Source: Caldora sp. (GTDB lineage: Bacteria; Cyanobacteriota; Cyanobacteriia; Cyanobacteriales; Coleofasciculaceae). From it: 33,052 nt of DNA. Below, in pieces: positions 1,623-23,165 of the stretch. Every line of letters starts with the position of its first letter. The stretch's first letter is position 1. The notes beneath the pieces are model-generated. The model made no database searches. It worked only from the letters and a program-made list of their open reading frames with translations, and was not told the DNA's origin. The DNA lies in NCBI GenBank assembly GCA_965222765.1, contig CBDCVG010000043.1:1-33052 (forward strand), read 5' to 3'. Position numbers and translations under genes: made by a program.

Positions 1623-3971
1623 TTGACCACTCCTGATGCTCGTCAGATGCTTTACATTAGTCCTGCTTATGAGGAAATTTGGGGTCGTACTACCCAAAGT
1701 TTGTACGAACGACCTGAATCTTGGCTAGAAGCTATTCATCCAGAAGACCGCGATCGCATCATAGCAGTCTATGCTACTAGTCTCCGAGAAAAGCGAGATT
1801 TAGACGAAGAGTATCGGATTATTCAACCGGATGGTTCAGAGCGCTGGGTAGGGGTGCGCAGTTCCTTTGTTTTCGATGAGGCAGGTGAACCGACAAGTAT
1901 TGCTGGCATTGCTGAGGATATCACTGAGCGGAAAATTTCGGAAGCTGAATTGCATCGCCAAGCACGACGTAGGCAATTGTTTGCGGAAATTACCCTTAAG
2001 ATCCGTAGGTCTTTAAGATTAGAGAAAATTCTCCAAACTACTGTCACAGAGGTGCGACGTATTCTTGATGTTGACAGGGTAGTAATCTACCAGCTATATG
2101 TTGATGGCTCAGGAACCGTGGTCAATGAGGCTGTACTTTCCAACTGGCCTGCTATCCAAGGAGAGCAGATCAACGATCCTTGTTTTGTTAAATCTTACCT
2201 GCAAATGTACCGTCAAGGAAGGATTCATGCGGTAGCTGATTTACAAAACTCTGAAGTCAAAACCTGCTATAGAGAAATGCTAGGTCAATTTGGTGTCAGA
2301 GCTAACTTAGTAGTACCCATTCTCCGCCGGGAAGAACTTTGGGGTTTACTAATTGCTCATCAGTGTAGTGGAGCAAGACAGTGGCAAGACTTTGAAGCTG
2401 AATTGTTAGATCAATTAGCGGATCAAGTGGGGATTGCTATTGCTCAGAGCCAGCTTCTGGAGAAGGAAACTAAGACAACTCAACAACTGACAGAACAGAA
2501 CCTCCACTTAGAAGAAGCCAGAAGGGAAGCTGAAGCTGCTAATCGGGCTAAGAGTGAATTTTTAGCGAACATGAGCCATGAACTCCGCACTCCCTTGAAT
2601 GGTATTTTGGGATACGCTCAAATCCTTAAACTCCAGTCTAGTTTAACTTCCAAACAACTGGAGCAAGTGAATATCATTCAACAAAGTGGCGAACACCTGT
2701 TAACCTTGCTCAATGATATCCTAGACCTCTCTAAAATTGAGGCGGGGAAAATGGAGCTCTACCTCAGCAATTTTCACTTGCCTCATTTCCTTGAAGGTAT
2801 TGCTGAAATTATTCGCCTTAGTGCTGAACAAAAAAATATTGCCTTTAATTATGAATTAGTCTCAGAGTTACCCCTTCATGTTAGAGGGGATGAAAAGCGA
2901 TTGCGACAAGTTCTGATTAATCTTTTGGGCAATGCAGTTAAATTTACTGACACCGGCGGGGTAACTTTCAAAGTTGGTTATTTAGAAAACTCTAAAATCC
3001 GCTTTCAGGTGGAAGATACTGGCATTGGCATAGCGCCAGAAAAATTAGCAGCGATCTTTTTACCTTTTCATCAAATCGGTGATTCTAAGCATCGCTTTGA
3101 AGGCACGGGACTAGGATTAGCCATCAGCCAAAAGTTAGTGAAGTTGATGGAAAGCGAATTGCAAGTAAAAAGTATCTTTGGTCAAGGGAGCATTTTTTGG
3201 ATAGATTTAGATTTACCAGAAGTTTCTGAAGGACAGGAGATGTCACCAGTTCCCAGAAAAACCATTGTCGGTTTTCGGGGTTCCAAGCGTAAACTACTCA
3301 TCGCCGACGATAAATGGGAAAATCGTTCGGTTTTAGTTAATCTGCTCCTGCCTTTGGGATTTGAAATCGCAGAAGTAAAAGACGGTAGAGATTGCCTTAA
3401 TCAGGCTATCGAATTAAAACCTGATTTAATTTTGCTGGATATGATTATGCCGGTAATTGATGGTTTAGAAACCACTCGGCAGTTGCGGCAGCTCAGAACT
3501 CTCAAAGATGTGGTAATCATTGCTACCTCAGCTAGTGTTTTTGATTACAATCAGCAGGAATATTTAGCAGCTGGTTGTGATGGCTTTATTCCTAAACCAG
3601 TACAAGCAGAAAATCTTTTTGAACTACTACAGGAGCATCTAGATCTAGAATGGATTTACGAAAATAGTAGGACACCAAGTAACCAAGAGCTAATAGAAGA
3701 AAGTACCATCTCTGGAGAAAGTTTCCAAGGAGAAATTGCTCAAACTATACAACCCAATAAAAGCACGTTGATAGTTCCACCACCTACACAAATAGCTGTT
3801 TTTTATGAACTAGCAATGATGGGAGATATTGGAGGTATCATTGAGCAAGCAAAAAAACTTCAACAACTAGATGAGCAATTTGTTCCTTTTGCTAATAAAC
3901 TGCTGCAATTAGCAAAAGGTTTTCAGGAAAAACAGATTCTGGAGTTTGTTAAACAATACACAGAGAATTAA
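1623..3971 (+). CDS. Hybrid sensor histidine kinase with PAS, GAF, HisKA, HATPase_c and REC domains plus a C-terminal tail (continuation of 2..1612)
   Basis: Starts at TTG 1623. Contains the PAS motif [22 protein letters not shown] and a GAF region ([19 protein letters not shown]...[12 protein letters not shown]). The H-box is [21 protein letters not shown]. The N, G1 and G2 boxes are [20 protein letters not shown] and [13 protein letters not shown]. The receiver domain is [13 protein letters not shown]...[13 protein letters not shown]...IPKP. Confidence 0.9.
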
Positions 3972-4030
3972 GAATTAAGAATTAAGAATTAAGAATGGGA
4001 AATGGGGAATTGGGAATTGGGAATTGGCAA
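3965..4030. repeat. STRR-type tandem heptanucleotide arrays (GAATTAA x4, then GGGAATT x3-4). The first unit supplies the kinase stop codon.
   Basis: Direct reading: gaattaagaattaagaattaagaattaagaatgggaaatggggaattgggaattgggaattgg. TAA at 3969-3971 lies inside the first unit. Confidence 0.85.
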
Positions 4031-4091
4031 GAAGAATTTTCCTCCTGCTTAAGGAAAAACAAGAAAGAGAGTAAATCTAAAATTCATCACA

Positions 4092-4571
4092 ATGCGTTTC
4101 CCCAAAGTTAGTATCATTGCCTTCATCACTTTCTTAAGTATCATTCTTAATGCTCATTGGGGATTGACCATCAGTTCCTCTAATTTACCCTGGAAAACCT
4201 CTGAGGTACAATTAGAACCCAACTACCAGATATTGAACCAAAACCTAGATGATACTCAACCAGAGAGAATAGCTCAGGAGAGTTTGCCACCAACTTTCTC
4301 TTCTATGATGAACCAGGGGCGTACCTACCGTGCCCAGAACAATTATGCTAAGGCAGTAGAGCACTTTGAGGAAGCTTTAACTTTTGCTCAAGAAAGTAAT
4401 AACTTAGAGCAGGAAGGTCGTGCTTTGAGTGAGTTGGGTAGTGCCTACCTCAGTTTGGGTAACTATGCCCAAGCACTAGCATACAATCAGGAGTGTTTAG
4501 TAGTTGCTCGGAAACTGGGTAATCGGCAGCGGGAATACTTGGCATTGAGTACTCTAGGAAGTAATTACAGT
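4092..4571 (+). pseudogene. N-terminal fragment (signal peptide + TPR repeats) of a TPR–CHAT protein gene, disrupted by IS insertion. The last 8 codons of the ORF (to 4595) are IS-derived.
   Basis: Hydrophobic N-terminus MRFPKVSIIAFITFLSIIL. TPR units match AYLSLGNYAQALAYNQECL. The repeat periodicity breaks after ...LGSNYS at 4571 and resumes at 6067 (KLGDNAKAIEFYQQAL). Confidence 0.7.
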
Positions 4572-4588
4572 ATTGTGACGTTCTCCCA

Positions 4589-4613
4589 CCGTTAACCCTT
4601 GCGGGTATAACGG
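4589..4613. repeat. Subterminal imperfect palindrome (hairpin) at the tnpB-3'-proximal end (RE side) of the IS
   Basis: ccgttaacccttgcgggtataacgg. Arms CCGTTA/TAACGG pair, and inner ACCC/GGGT pair. The same architecture is seen at the other end. Confidence 0.6.
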
Positions 4614-4619
4614 AGGCTT

Positions 4620-5879
4620 CTAAAATAGAGACAGTTGAACCCACTCTCTACTTGTAGCTTCGCGCTTCCCAGGTTGTCTATCGACTAAGCCTCCACGCGC
4701 AGGCAAGATGAGTCCCACCTCGCTTAATGCTCGGTCTAAAATATTCCGAGCTGCGTTTTCATCTCTGTCCAGGGTGATGCCACATTTGTGACATTCATGC
4801 AACCGAACAGACAAAGTTTTCGGTACTTTCACTCCACAGTTTGAGCAATTTTGTGATGTACTGTGAGGATTCACTGCAACAACTCGGACGCCGCGTTTGA
4901 CCGCCACTGCCTCCAAGATGGTGATGAATTTACCCCAAGCTGCATCCAAAATTGACTTGCTCAATCTTGTACGAGCTAGTCCTTTAATGTTCAAATCTTC
5001 CACCGCAATCAAGTCATATTGTTTAACCAGTTTGTGAGCTGTGTTGTAATGGAAGTTTTCCCTGATTCTGCCAATACGCTGATGAATTCTAGCGATGAAG
5101 TTCTTCTGTTTTTCAGCTCGTTTTGAACCAGCTTTTTTACGTGCTAATTTGCGCTGTTGACGAGCTAGATGAGACTGAGTTTTGCGATAGGTTTGCTGAA
5201 TCGGAACTGTTTCGCCATCCGAGGTTGTCAGAAATTCTTTTAGTCCGACATCAACACCAACAGCAGTCTGAACTTCATCTAATGGCATAGGTTCGGTAAC
5301 TGTTTCATCCTGCATAGAAATGCAACAGTACCAGCCATCAGCTTTGTGGACTATGGTGCAAGTCTTGAGAGTAAAACCATCCGGAATAGGACGATGCATG
5401 ATTACAGGCATCTGTCCTATCTTTGATAGTTTCAGTATCCCATTATTGATGTGCGCACCAGCTCGTTTACAGTTAACTCTAGGGTAAACAAATGAGCGAA
5501 GTGTACCTGCTTTTTTGAACCGTGGGCGTCCACCGCGTTTGCCAGACTTATCCGGAATTAGCCAGTGCCCCCAAGCTTTGTTTAATCGTTGTAGATTAAC
5601 TTGTTGAGATTCTGACCAGATGTTTTTGTAGTCTGGAAAAAGTTTCTTTGTTTGTTTAAGAGCCGACTGTTGAGTGTAGTAGTTAACTTTTTCTGATATT
5701 TCCCCAATCGGTTCAGAAATCAGACTACAACGGTCAATCCGACAACGAGTTCTTCTTAGCCAATCTAACCTCTGACCGAGTGCGTAATTCCAATGCCTCC
5801 GAAGTAGCTCTAAGGTGTAGAGCATGATTGCTTCTTGTTCGGCGCTGGGTTTAATTCGGTAGCAGTAGGTTAAAATCAT
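4620..5879 (-). CDS. tnpB: TnpB (OrfB_IS605; RuvC-like RNA-guided endonuclease of the OMEGA type)
   Basis: Translation from ATG 5879 begins MILTYCYRIKPSAEQEAIMLYTLELLRRHW. RuvC-I is VGVDVGLKEF. RuvC-II is [27 protein letters not shown]. The zinc ribbon is CSNCG...CHKCG, followed by RuvC-III DRDENAARNI. The ORF track extends 39 codons further upstream (to 5996) without similarity. Confidence 0.85.
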   Translation of the reverse strand: MILTYCYRIKPSAEQEAIMLYTLELLRRHWNYALGQRLDWLRRTRCRIDRCSLISEPIGEISEKVNYYTQQSALKQTKKLFPDYKNIWSESQQVNLQRLNKAWGHWLIPDKSGKRGGRPRFKKAGTLRSFVYPRVNCKRAGAHINNGILKLSKIGQMPVIMHRPIPDGFTLKTCTIVHKADGWYCCISMQDETVTEPMPLDEVQTAVGVDVGLKEFLTTSDGETVPIQQTYRKTQSHLARQQRKLARKKAGSKRAEKQKNFIARIHQRIGRIRENFHYNTAHKLVKQYDLIAVEDLNIKGLARTRLSKSILDAAWGKFITILEAVAVKRGVRVVAVNPHSTSQNCSNCGVKVPKTLSVRLHECHKCGITLDRDENAARNILDRALSEVGLILPARGGLVDRQPGKREATSREWVQLSLF

Positions 5880-6021
5880 AGTTATAATTTTACAACTTAC
5901 CGCCTTTGTTGCTAGTTGTGGGGGCGTAACAGTCGAGCAGCTTAAAAAGTATGTCGAGCAACAAGCAACTCCGAAATGATGATTCGCTCCGCTCAATTTC
6001 TTTGTCTGTCAGCATTCCCCG

Positions 6022-6049
6022 CCCGTTAAGCCTATGCGGCTATAACGGG
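6022..6049. repeat. Subterminal imperfect palindrome (hairpin) at the tnpB-5'-proximal end (LE side) of the IS
   Basis: cccgttaagcctatgcggctataacggg. Arms CCCGTTA/TAACGGG pair, and inner AGCC/GGCT pair. It is homologous to the hairpin at 4589-4613. Confidence 0.6.
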
Positions 6050-6066
6050 TGACCCCTGTCGAAATT

Positions 6067-7146
6067 AAGTTGGGGGATAATGCCAAAGCGATTGAGTTCT
6101 ATCAACAGGCTTTAACCCTAGCGCAGGCAATGGGTAACCCTGAGCAAGAAGTTTCCGCTCTGAATACTCTGGGAAGTATGTACTTCTCTATCTCTGCTCA
6201 AGAGTATCAGGCTCAAGTGATTGATTACCACCAGCAAGCTTTAACCATTGCCAGAGAAATTGGAAATTTGTGGGAAGAATATAGCTCTTTGAGTAGCTTA
6301 AGTGGAATTTACTCCTTCTTGGGGAACTATGCCACAGCCATTGAATATTCTCAACAAGCTTTAGCTATTGCTCCCCAACAAGGCTATCTGTTTCTGGTTC
6401 CCTTCCCAGCACTGCAAGATAAGTTAGGTAAGCACTTAATAGAAAAACATACCATCTTGACTGCACCTACAATTCAAATACTCGATTTAACCCGCCAGCA
6501 AAGGGACAAAATTGGGGATAGACGACTCGGTTCCCAGTCCTTAGTAGTAGGAAATCCTACCATGCCTAGTGTGCTCTTATCTCCAGGGGAAAAACCGCAA
6601 CAGTTATCTTCCCTCCCTAGTGCAGAACGGGAAGCAAATGCGATCGCACCTCTATTAAATACCCTACCCTTAATCGGTAATCAAGCTACTGAAACTACTA
6701 TTAAGCAGCAGTTAGGTAAAGCTAGAATAATTCACTTAGCAACCCACGGGTTATTAGATGAGGAACAGGGATTAGGAAGTGCCATTGCTTTTACCCCATC
6801 TACTCAGGATGACGGTTTACTTACTGCCGCAGAAATCTTGGATTTGCAATTAAATGCTGAATTAGTAGTCTTGAGTGCCTGTGATACTGGCAGAGGTAGA
6901 ATTACTGGAGATGGGGTAGTCGGATTATCTCGCTCTTTCATTAGCGCTGGAGTCCCCAGCATCATAGTCTCCTTGTGGCAAGTACCAGATGCTCCTACTG
7001 CTTCCTTAATGACTCAGTTTTATCAAAACTTCTCGTCCAACCCAGATAAAGCGCAAGCTCTACGCAGTGCTATGCTAGTGACGATGAAGCAACATCCTAA
7101 CCCTAAAAACTGGGCAGCTTTTACGTTAATTGGGGAAGCAAATTGA
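6067..7146 (+). pseudogene. C-terminal fragment of the TPR–CHAT protein (remaining TPR repeats + CHAT caspase-like domain), separated from its 5' half by the IS. The ORF track calls it from GTG 6049, which lies inside the IS end.
   Basis: TPR repeats match LGDNAKAIEFYQQALTLAQAMGNPEQE and LGNYATAIEYSQQALAIA. The CHAT motifs are IIHLATHGLLDE (catalytic His) and VVLSACDTGRG (catalytic Cys). Confidence 0.7.
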
Positions 7147-7233: not shown

Positions 7234-7588
7234 CTAACCAAATGTTCTGCCATCCCAACCCCAAAGATATCCTTGTGCATCAGCAAACTCAATGTAAATG
7301 CGGTTAGTCGGAACATCAATTGCCTGATTAATCTGCTCACAGAAGTCCTGACTCATCGCTTTGGTTTGCTGGGGGACGCATACTACCAACACTCTTGATT
7401 TCCACATAACAAACAGGATCACTGGTTCCGGCAAAAGTCATCGGAACATTAGATTCCAAAGCAGTCATTACATAAGATTCCGGCTTGCCTAGATGCTTGG
7501 CAAGGCTGGCAGAGAGTTGTTTGAGCAATGCTTCAGATTTATTTGTGTCCGGTGCAGTAACAGAAGTTTGAACTTTGATCAGCGGCAT
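7234..7588 (-). CDS. MIF-like tautomerase superfamily protein (macrophage migration inhibitory factor homolog). It is interrupted by a 1-nt frameshift in a G5/C5 run at 7370-7374.
   Basis: N-terminus MPLIKVQTSV (Pro-1 tautomerase start after Met). Also contains ...LGKPESYVMTALESNVPMTFAGTSDPVCYVEIKSVG. The C-terminal half is in the other frame (...RIYIEFADAQGYLWGWDGRTFG) and matches MIF family ends. ORF track pieces are 7337..7642 and 7234..7434. Confidence 0.6.
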
Positions 7589-7675
7589 ATGTTTAACCCT
7601 TGCTTCAATCCCAAACCTTAGCCTAGCGGATTCTTGAGTCAATTGCGTTAGTAAATGGGTTGCCCGAAGAAGTTG

Positions 7676-13047: not shown

Positions 13048-15215
<2,168 letters not shown>

Positions 15216-21609: not shown

Positions 21610-21687
21610 GTAGGTTGGGTGTAACGAAGTGAAACCCAACAGAATATACGCCGGTGTTGGGTTACGCTATCGCTCCACCCAACCTAC
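21610..21687. repeat. Small MITE-like element (78 bp) with 12-bp perfect TIRs and an internal hairpin. A truncated copy is at 24716-24775.
   Basis: Left TIR is gtaggttgggtg (21610-21621) and right TIR is cacccaacctac (21676-21687). The internal palindrome is aacccaacag...ggtgttgggtt. The core gaagtgaaacccaacag...gttgggttacgctatcgctc recurs in inverted orientation at 24716-24775. Confidence 0.6.
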
Positions 21688-21811
21688 TTATTCTCAAAAG
21701 ACGCGGAGAATTGAAATCCCACTTCATGTTTCGTTCACCTCCATACCCCCTATCTCCCGATCTTCCCCATCTCCCCATCTCCTCCAGCTTCCCAGCTCCC
21801 CTTTCAGAACA

Positions 21812-23165
21812 ATGCTAATAAATTTTGCTCTCAAACATCGGTTCTTGCAACAGCAACAACAACTTATTCTCGGTGGATGTCTTCTAGTAGGTTTAGCAAT
21901 CACCACTCAGCTAGTACCAAAGCTAATTGCTTCATCTTCTCCCTACCGCTATCCTTTTGCATCACCCACTGATGTTAATATCACTCGTCAGCTAGAACAA
22001 GAAGTGACGTTTTATCAAAGGCGCATTCGTCAGAGTCCTCAGGATGGCCTTAATCAAGCACTCTTAGCAACCGTCTATCTCAAGCTAGCAAGAGCCACAG
22101 GTGATTCCAACTGGTATTTGTTGGCAGAACAAGCTGCTCAACAATCTTTCAATAATCTGCCTTTTAACAATACGGGAGCGCTACTCGCTCAAGCAAAAGT
22201 TGCAGAAGCTAGGCATGATTTTGACGGAGCGATCGAACTTGTTCAAAAAGTTTTGAGTACCCATCCTCAGCACGAAGATGCCTTATCTATTCTAGTAAGT
22301 GCTCATCTGGGAAAGGGACAAATTTCTCAAGCCGAGGTTGCGGCTCAACAATTAGTTGAGCAAGTCCCCGACATTGGGTGCTTATACTCTCAGAGCTTTG
22401 GTTAATATCGCTCAAGGTCAAGATGAAGCTGCAATTGAAGACTTTCAACAAGCCTTGGCGTTAGAAGAACCCGAAGAAGTGGGTAGCTCTGTTTGGACTA
22501 GAACCTTGCTGGCTCGGTTTTATGCTAGCCGAGGTGAGTTGAACGAAGCCAAACAGCTTTATCAAGAAGCATTGCGAATTTTACCGCGATCGCCTTTAGG
22601 ACTGACTCAATTAGCTCAACTAGAAACTCGGCTAGGCAACTACCGTAAGGCAGAAAAGCTCTATTCCCAAGTTTTTGTATCCCGCGATTATCCCAATGTC
22701 TGGGATCATGTGGCGCTGGAAGGTATGGCAGAAGTAGAAGTTTTACGGGGTAATCGAGTAGAAGCGGAAGCTCTCTGGGAGAAGGCAGAGGTTCTCTTTC
22801 GCCAGCATCAAGATTTGAGTACTTTTGGCCACCGCCGAGAGTTAGCGCGATTGTTGCTCTCACGAGGACGGGAAAAGGATTTGCCAGAAGCTCTAACCCT
22901 GATAGAAGCTGACTTGCAAATGCGTCGTGATGTAGAAACCCTGGATACCTATGCCTGGGTACTAACTCGGTTGAACCGTTGGCAAGATGCTCAGGCTGTC
23001 TTGAAAAAAGCGATCGCAACTGGTCAACGTAGTGCAGTTATCTTCTACAGAGCAGGACTGGTTGAACAGCACTTAGGTAATTCTAACCAGGCAGAGACTT
23101 ACTTTCAACAGTCTAAGGCAACTGACCCGATGTTTGACTTTCAAGAAACAAGGCAGTCTCGATGA
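21812..23165 (+). CDS. TPR-repeat protein with an N-terminal TM/signal segment, interrupted by a +1 frameshift (extra G in the GGG run at 22376-22378)
   Basis: Starts MLINFALKHRFLQQQQQLILGGCLLVGLAI. Frame 2 ends ...LVEQVPDIGCLYSQSFG*, while frame 0 continues ...GAYTLRALVNIAQGQDEAAIEDFQQALAL with consistent TPR periodicity. The upstream part of ORF 21629.. is a translated heptamer repeat. Confidence 0.7.

Follow-up and report, generated by a model that had tools for sequence, protein, structure and literature searches.

A probable non-autonomous IS605-group derivative with an intact tnpB, inserted in a TPR–CHAT gene of a Caldora genome

The sequence analyzed here, called the window below, comprises 33,052 nucleotides (positions 1 to 33,052 of contig CBDCVG010000043.1, forward strand) from the Caldora sp. 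assembly GCA_965222765.1. Pfam matches identify two open reading frames (ORFs) on the plus strand, a TPR ORF at 4092-4595 and a TPR plus CHAT ORF at 6049-7146, and between them, on the opposite strand, lies the tnpB gene of an insertion sequence (IS). A preliminary description of the locus had recognized an IS200/IS605-family element with an intact tnpB and a hairpin at each end, inserted in a single TPR–CHAT gene without target duplication, and this much is borne out by Pfam and structure matches, by the palindromes found, and by the agreement of the excised sequence with an uninterrupted homolog. We conclude with considerable confidence that the element is a non-autonomous IS of the IS605 group, in which tnpA and tnpB are divergent, and that its ancestral tnpA was lost by deletion before it moved in trans into the TPR–CHAT gene. 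The features of the locus are collected in Table 1.

Table 1. Features of the interrupted TPR–CHAT locus, in window coordinates.
Feature	Coordinates	Strand	Remarks
Whole element	4575-6069	minus	1495 bp; non-autonomous, IS200/IS605 family, IS605-group derivative; placed by end alignments and by the frame regained on clean excision
Left end (LE)	5980-6069	minus	includes the subterminal palindrome at 6022-6049; two substitutions, at the otherwise conserved 6063 and 6059
LE subterminal palindrome	6022-6049	minus	CCCGTTATAGCC-GCATA-GGCTTAACGGG
Right end (RE) subterminal imperfect palindrome	4589-4613	minus	CCGTTATACCC-GCAA-GGGTTAACGG, bulged T
tnpB, intact ORF	4620-5879	minus	1260 nt, 419 aa; RuvC and zinc finger residues present
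tnpA remnant	5905-5979	plus	last 24 codons and stop (FVASCGGVTVEQLKKYVEQQATPK); HUH motif and catalytic Tyr deleted
Predicted scaffold of the omega RNA (reRNA)	4575-4728	minus	about 150 nt; overlaps the last ~105 nt of tnpB and the RE
Predicted guide	4559-4574	minus	16 nt, AATACTGTAATTACTT; templated by host TPR-gene DNA beyond the RE
Target motif and predicted transposon-associated motif (TAM)	6070-6073	minus	CCAA (ttgg on plus); directly 5' of the LE
5' part of split TPR–CHAT gene	4092-4574	plus	signal-peptide-like N-terminus and TPR repeats; colinear with residues 1-~163 of homolog P0002
3' part of split TPR–CHAT gene	6070-7146	plus	TPR repeats and CHAT domain (E 1.3e-68)
Predicted empty-site sequence, TPR–CHAT locus			...TACAGTATTTTGGGGGAT...

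The product of tnpB matches the Pfam families OrfB_IS605 (E 1.6e-23), Cas12f1-like_TNB, a zinc ribbon (5e-22), and HTH_OrfB_IS605 (2.8e-7), and it aligns over residues 92-399 with the solved structures of ISDra2 TnpB (8bf8/8exa/8h1j; E 7e-41). The RuvC triad is present as D210 (GVD), E294 (AVE) and D373 (DRD), and the zinc finger cysteines C345/C348/C363/C366 (CxxC...CxxC) are all kept. From these intact catalytic residues, TnpB is predicted to carry out RNA-guided, TAM-dependent cleavage of DNA. No stop codon or frameshift interrupts the gene, although frameshifts affect at least three other genes of the 33-kb window.

The ends were placed by alignment with related copies. A scan with one genome per species found 49 related loci, all cyanobacterial except one in Paenibacillus (L047), the nearest being in metagenome-assembled genomes of Symploca and Caldora at 88-94% amino-acid identity. 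At the RE, every aligned copy terminates in the invariant ...GAGAACGTCAC and flanking sequences differ straight after it (~30 loci); in the window this alignment is constant up to GTCAC, the last base of which is 4575. With the RE so fixed, only a 1495-bp excision, 4575-6069, regains both the reading frame and the TPR spacing. At the other end, conservation begins at (Y)CCAA-CT(T/A)(A/G)ATGTCGGCAGGGGTC, and the LE of the window copy begins CTTAAT..., abutting the conserved CCAA. The preliminary description had the correct length, 1495 bp, in an interval (4572-6066) lying 3 nt to the left of the true one. We rejected the 4572/6066 boundary in favor of 4575/6069 on the strength of the invariant RE end and of the homologous protein sequence YSILGD, to which we return below.

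There are no terminal inverted repeats. Instead, each end has a subterminal imperfect palindrome, and the two palindromes are direct repeats of each other (repeat families D6 and D13), with the same orientation at both ends. As single-stranded DNA both fold better than shuffled sequences (RE, -10.2 kcal/mol, z = -3.05; LE, z = -3.4), and more than 30 relatives conserve both, with covariation in the inner stems; in the RE palindrome the outer stem is conserved while pairs 282/314 and 283/313 of the inner stem covary. The LE of the window copy folds at -12.8 kcal/mol, as against -17.9 and -17.4 for two full-length relatives (L002 and L004); the difference comes from a weakened outer stem, GTCGGCA/TGCTGAC, around the hairpin. 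In another relative (L005, 2473-2535), GTGACCCCTGCCGAC replaces the usual GGGGAATGCCGAC after the LE hairpin, so that the whole LE is a long near-perfect palindrome (GTCGGCAGGGGTCACCCGTTA...TAACGGGTGACCCCTGCCGAC); this hints that the extended LE stem matters. The IS607 family is characterized by a serine-recombinase TnpA and a G-rich target, and membership in that family is excluded by the Y1_Tnp type of the tnpA in relatives together with the CCAA target.

The motif CCAA is constant at 16 of 16 distinct insertion sites, preceded at position -5 by T at 10 sites, by C at 4, and by G and A at 1 each. Excision of 4575-6069 regains the protein sequence ...LGSNYSI/LGDNAKAIEFY..., in agreement with the closest uninterrupted homolog, P0002, an 848-aa protein encoded at locus L050 that reads ...LGSIYSILGDKAEAIEFY... 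and contains YSILGD. This corrects the junction YS/KLGD proposed previously. At the DNA level, TACAGTATT is followed by TTGGGC in L050 and by TTGGGG in the reconstituted window, and excision yields TACAGTATTTTGGG, identical to the uninterrupted homolog, with no duplication of the target. The alignment of P0002 with the reconstituted protein covers residues 1-266 at 62% identity and residues 265-518 at 81%, colinearly and through the junction; together with more than 100 others it is a single-gene, uninterrupted homolog colinear across the junction, and among the top matches listed, those below the window's own fragment are each a single TPR–CHAT protein of ~780-910 aa. The two halves might have belonged to separate genes in all relatives, in which case no gene had been split; these homologs speak against that. 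The same boundary rules, applied independently to L002, regain KSLIQ/RARP, which is the KX6RP motif of a PAP2 phosphatase gene; that full-length relative (1907-4381, Symploca sp. SIO2C1) splits a PAP2-family phosphatase gene between KSLIQ and RARP. Because excision regains frame and homolog sequence, and CCAA is present at all sites, the comparison indicates an exact insertion, 3' of CCAA, that splits one TPR–CHAT gene within a TPR repeat without target duplication. The insertion accounts for the appearance of this gene, for a caspase-like protease, as two ORFs. P0002 was considered as a syntenic empty site and rejected, since its neighbors differ (a flavodoxin-like gene); it is the closest homolog, not a proven ortholog.

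The host gene has a second lesion, near 6376-6385. An in-frame internal deletion of ~970 bp, bordered by CCCCAAGGC-like microhomology, corresponds to residues 269-590 of P0002 and removes the later TPRs and the linker preceding CHAT. The reconstituted gene would encode 519 aa, as against ~780-910 aa for the listed top matches.

An arrangement of this kind could in principle arise from an artifact, either a chimeric join in the assembly or two genes misread as one. The assembly does contain frameshifts of the homopolymer type, such as one in atpA at 14466-14469, but the element's boundaries match the conserved ends of its family and the CCAA motif to the base, and excision regains both the frame and the homolog's sequence, so that we consider an artifact extremely improbable. 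As to the frameshifts themselves, an extra C in a cccc run breaks atpA (13634-15215; ATP synthase alpha subunit) into two overlapping ORFs, and its removal regains a continuous protein sequence; it reflects either an indel from sequencing or a genuine frameshift in this essential gene. A MIF/tautomerase-like gene at 7234-7642 (minus) and a TPR gene at 21629-23165 (plus) likewise each appear as two overlapping ORFs. The count of frameshifts in 33 kb is thus at least three, which points either to an indel-prone assembly or to a decaying genome.

The history of the element is read from the segment between the LE and tnpB. In most relatives, ~338 extra bases there interrupt the nucleotide match to the window; together with adjoining conserved DNA, they encode a 136-aa protein, divergent from tnpB, that matches Y1_Tnp (PF01797) end to end with E ~1e-42. 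Full-length tnpA genes of this type are carried by L002, L004 and about 15 other relatives. The window aligns base for base with L002 and L004 on either side of the 338-bp gap, and the deletion junction, ...CAACAAAG/GCGGTAAG..., falls at 5903/5904 with a 2-nt ambiguity, an AG microhomology. A tblastn search of the window with the L002 TnpA matched residues 113-136 only, where the remnant is 100% identical. The window element thus has no Y1 (HUH) TnpA of its own beyond these 24 C-terminal codons, and the earlier characterization of it as non-autonomous and without tnpA holds, apart from the remnant itself. Since that remnant is in place and the alignment is base for base across the gap, comparative sequence evidence identifies the element as an internal-deletion derivative of an IS605-group (tnpA plus tnpB) ancestor, in which a 338-bp deletion removed the promoter-proximal 112 codons of tnpA. 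The deletion spared both hairpin-bearing ends, tnpB and the structured 3' region. The lineage belongs to the IS605 group, and the window copy is a defective derivative of it.

The preliminary description had instead called the element tnpB-only, and a primary element of the IS1341 type that never had a tnpA might look similar. TnpB is the sole protein that the window element encodes, and a more distant Okeania branch of the family (loci L028-L039) has no tnpA at all. The in-frame codons retained from tnpA, identical to the end of a full-length relative, and the alignment with full-length relatives on both sides of the gap leave such an origin next to no probability, and we regard it as already refuted by the remnant.

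Several other members of the lineage have lesions in tnpA. L011 keeps residues 78-136, L033 keeps 101-136 and L001 keeps none, while the gene is frameshifted in L008 and L025. On this comparative evidence, tnpA is judged to have been lost recurrently and independently in this IS lineage, with tnpB and both ends retained. Three different tnpA deletions each stop just upstream of the tnpB ATG, and the shared endpoints suggest either that selection preserves tnpB together with its start or that this point is a hotspot for recombination.

The preliminary description had proposed a search for further copies, the lack of which it would have taken as evidence against its account. No further copies or solo ends occur within the 33-kb window, but one was found outside it. 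Clustered at 90% identity, the window TnpB has a single companion, P0122, located on a 103.8-kb ENA metagenome contig (locus L052; ERZ25072724, contig ctg138390_7.69x_c); four further TnpBs, 91-94% identical, are on NCBI/ENA contigs. The L052 copy is exactly 1495 bp long, is 97.3% identical to the window copy (41 substitutions) and shares its deletion junction exactly. Its insertion site differs, with another CCAA (...GACCGACCAA preceding the element) and another 3' flank (GATGAAATTAAT... following it). Because the two copies share a junction and yet sit at different CCAA sites, the deletion appears to have come before at least one change of site, most simply by way of TnpA supplied in trans. 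The presence of the same deletion derivative at two different CCAA sites thereby gives indirect support for TnpA-mediated, peel-and-paste movement. The insertion had also been described as recent; a divergence of 2.7% from the sibling copy, the two LE substitutions and the ~970-bp deletion in the host gene do not bear this out.

Substitutions between the two copies are unevenly spread, with 3 in the first 285 nt (element 148-432) and 16 in the next 230 nt (433-662); the stretches are reported as window 5880-6069 versus 5555-5784, and the 75-nt tnpA remnant carries none. Either the LE and remnant are constrained in cis, or the copies are recombination mosaics. The neighbors of the sibling copy (L052, 1-9260) include an N6_N4 methyltransferase, a ParB_N-methyltransferase and many unannotated small genes. 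The contig looks plasmid- or phage-like, and the '_c' in its name may mean circular; such a contig could be a vehicle for spread between genomes. Among viral contigs, neither a 26-nt junction pattern nor a TnpB protein scan gave matches. A 16-mer junction pattern, run against metagenome_contigs and viral_contigs, returned 166 loci and was discarded, all being chance matches by blastn to a pattern that is too short.

Between the tnpB genes of the two copies there are 26 synonymous and 12 non-synonymous codon differences, for a ratio of non-synonymous to synonymous change (pN/pS) of ~0.14, which is not usable as a clock given patchy substitutions and possible recombination among copies. The ratio indicates that tnpB is under purifying selection between two copies that both lack tnpA. 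Conservation of tnpB after loss of tnpA might also be expected if TnpB had been domesticated, as a nuclease-dead repressor (TldR-like) or some other host regulator. The hallmarks of TldR are an inactivated RuvC domain and lost transposon ends, whereas here the RuvC triad and zinc finger are intact and both ends are present. The element moreover occupies different, gene-disrupting sites in different genomes, and no fixed, syntenic position shared across species and accompanied by degenerate ends, as would be a sign of domestication, was seen. We therefore consider domestication very improbable.

The 3' region of tnpB and the RE carry a conserved structure. The last 230 nt of 32 copies were aligned (A2), and the consensus structure has helices rich in compensatory changes. 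With one added helix, 97% of cells are paired, compared with 39-52% in slid controls; the covariation score is 0.36, against <0.1 in controls, and double-change cells number 106, against 35±6 in shuffles. Several paired positions are predominantly G·U, workable solely on the sense strand of tnpB, and the structure is assigned to that strand because such pairs are frequent. A covariance model, R1, built from 23 copies, has a single match in the window, at 4575-4728 on the minus strand, with a score of 147 bits. On relatives outside model building it gives full-length matches of 52-118 bits at tnpB 3' ends, in which 24 of 38 pairs are changed on both sides versus 11.9±1.7 in shuffles, as counted in an alignment fitted to R1 and hence leaning towards the structure of the model. 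The 5' scaffold (GAGGU) forms a long-range helix with the 3' end (ACGUC) beside the guide; a similar helix has been described for prokaryotic omega RNAs (PMC13565253). Rfam searches of the whole window at the gathering threshold, and of 4400-6250 at E ≤ 1, gave no family matches.

Comparative analysis thus strongly supports a predicted omega-RNA scaffold that overlaps the tnpB 3' end and the RE. The preliminary description had expected such an RNA near 4572-4760 on the minus strand; an omega-RNA-like structure is found there, and the match to the model sets narrower limits. The RE hairpin forms part of this structure and probably has a double role, in which its DNA form would serve TnpA and its RNA form TnpB. 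In one relative (L003, 4100-4349), the omega-RNA region has extra insertions (21 nt after ...TTAAGCG) and the RE hairpin loop is greatly enlarged, and this copy still scores 112 bits with R1; the insertions are tolerated expansion points in the RNA and the RE.

By the established mechanism, the guide is the ~16 nt past the RE, and the TAM is the transposon target motif (PMC13565253). From the exact RE boundary and this known TnpB/omega-RNA architecture, we infer the guide AATACTGTAATTACTT, the reverse complement of 4559-4574. The earlier proposal that the guide derives from the adjoining TPR-gene DNA stands, with a shift of 3 nt from 4556-4571. CCAA is the TAM predicted, by the same analogy, from the target motif. 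In the window, the match to the guide is preceded by TCAC rather than CCAA, and it is the sole near match there.

A sequence of events can be drawn up from these results. The comparisons show that an ancestor had a Y1/HUH tnpA between LE and tnpB, most of which the 338-bp deletion then stripped away. By analogy with the family mechanism, the deleted element would move as single-stranded DNA ('peel and paste') through TnpA acting in trans, and would be pasted 3' of CCAA into the bottom strand of the TPR–CHAT gene, splitting a TPR repeat with no duplication of target. The 3' end of the element would give an omega RNA with a ~150-nt scaffold (4728 to 4575) and a ~16-nt guide, AATACTGTAATTACTT, from the host flank. 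TnpB with this RNA would cut element-free copies of the locus, where CCAA is followed by the guide match, AATACTGTAATTAC..., after which the insertion would be restored or spread through recombination with an occupied copy. The occupied site itself would escape cutting, because TCAC and not CCAA precedes the guide match.

Several observations weigh against deletion of tnpA followed by movement in trans. The LE of the window copy (CTTAATtTCGaCAGG) is substituted at 6063 and 6059, positions constant in nearly all relatives, and with a weakened outer stem the copy may no longer be excisable. No donor tnpA has come to light for the source genome, of which the 33-kb window was covered, and there tblastn matched the remnant only. 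The sibling copy comes from a different assembly, and horizontal transfer followed by recombination, rather than transposition, is formally another route to its second site. With its end 24 nt upstream of the tnpB ATG, the tnpA deletion may have taken the native tnpB promoter; no convincing promoter-like site was found inside the element, and a promoter and terminator scan of 4400-6250 gave matches at or below chance level. Because the LE substitutions weaken the stem and the native promoter may be lost, the window copy may be poorly mobile or poorly expressed.

Taken further, the same observations would make the copy a fossil that no longer moves or homes, a dead insertion in a decaying gene. 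The LE changes, the loss of tnpA, the want of a promoter-like site within the element, the second lesion in the host gene and the lack of a second copy in the 33-kb window all fit such a view, and an intact TnpB could be explained by too little time for decay or by selection on other copies. Against it stand a tnpB free of stops and frameshifts in a 33-kb region where at least three genes are frameshifted, its pN/pS of 0.14, and an RE and omega-RNA structure that is fully consensus-like at 147 bits. A fossil copy is unlikely on balance, although it is the alternative to which we give the most weight.

Another explanation dispenses with TnpA. TnpB and the omega RNA would cut insertion-free chromosome copies in a polyploid host, and repair would fix the insertion, as a gene drive; this would account for selection on tnpB after loss of tnpA. 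Many cyanobacteria are polyploid. A drive would be consistent with purifying selection on tnpB between two copies without tnpA, and with the repeated loss of tnpA, on independent occasions, from elements that retained tnpB and the ends. An IS605 has also been reported to spread through a plasmid population independently of TnpA (PMC13565253). The case is entirely inferential here, however, and homing alone cannot account for the new site of the sibling copy, so that a TnpA-independent drive seems doubtful. Somewhat more speculative still is the proposal that the lineage is maintained mainly by TnpB–omega-RNA homing or gene drive among the chromosome copies of a polyploid host, with only occasional TnpA-in-trans transposition, and with a CCAA TAM that is unusually C-containing for a family usually described as AT-rich-targeting.

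Recurrent loss of tnpA with conservation of tnpB, ends and RNA structure amounts to a small natural experiment among relatives, one in keeping with TnpB as it is now viewed, a selfish homing nuclease. For an uncharacterized cyanobacterial TnpB lineage with many relatives, the gains are base-exact ends, the target motif CCAA as a predicted TAM, a guide sequence and R1 as a model of the omega RNA; a TnpB with a CCAA TAM could interest collectors of compact genome editors. The value is mostly that of a clean annotation, with nothing to surprise a specialist.

IS605 itself is divergently organized. Like IS605/IS606 of Helicobacter pylori, relatives of the window element have a Y1 HUH tnpA and a divergent tnpB, and the element shares with them the lack of inverted terminal repeats and of target duplication, the subterminal imperfect palindromes at both ends, and insertion 3' of a short specific motif. 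It differs in its target, CCAA versus the AT-rich TTTAA/TTAAC (PMC13565253), in the absence of tnpA from the window copy through the 338-bp deletion, and in its host, a filamentous cyanobacterium. The motifs of IS608, IS605 and ISDra2 are all AT-rich, in contrast to CCAA (PMC13565253). Every trait agrees with the IS605 group, from which the motif and the non-autonomy of this copy are small departures.

ISDra2 of Deinococcus radiodurans is the prototype for TnpB and reRNA (PDB 8exa, 8h1j, 8bf8). All of the TnpB catalytic residues align with it, a structured RNA, predicted here, overlaps the tnpB 3' end and RE in the same way, with a guide that would be templated by the 3' flank, and a long-range helix again links the 5' scaffold to the 3' end beside the guide. 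The TAM is TTGAT in ISDra2 and is predicted to be CCAA here, and the omega RNA of the present lineage is predicted by comparative analysis and matches no Rfam family. Finally, as in the tnpB-only IS1341 group and other non-autonomous IS200/IS605 derivatives, TnpB stands alone between ends of the family type, and TnpA would be needed in trans. Unlike in the IS1341 group, loss of tnpA here is secondary, tied to one junction common to two copies, and sister lineages of the window element show other, independent tnpA deletions.

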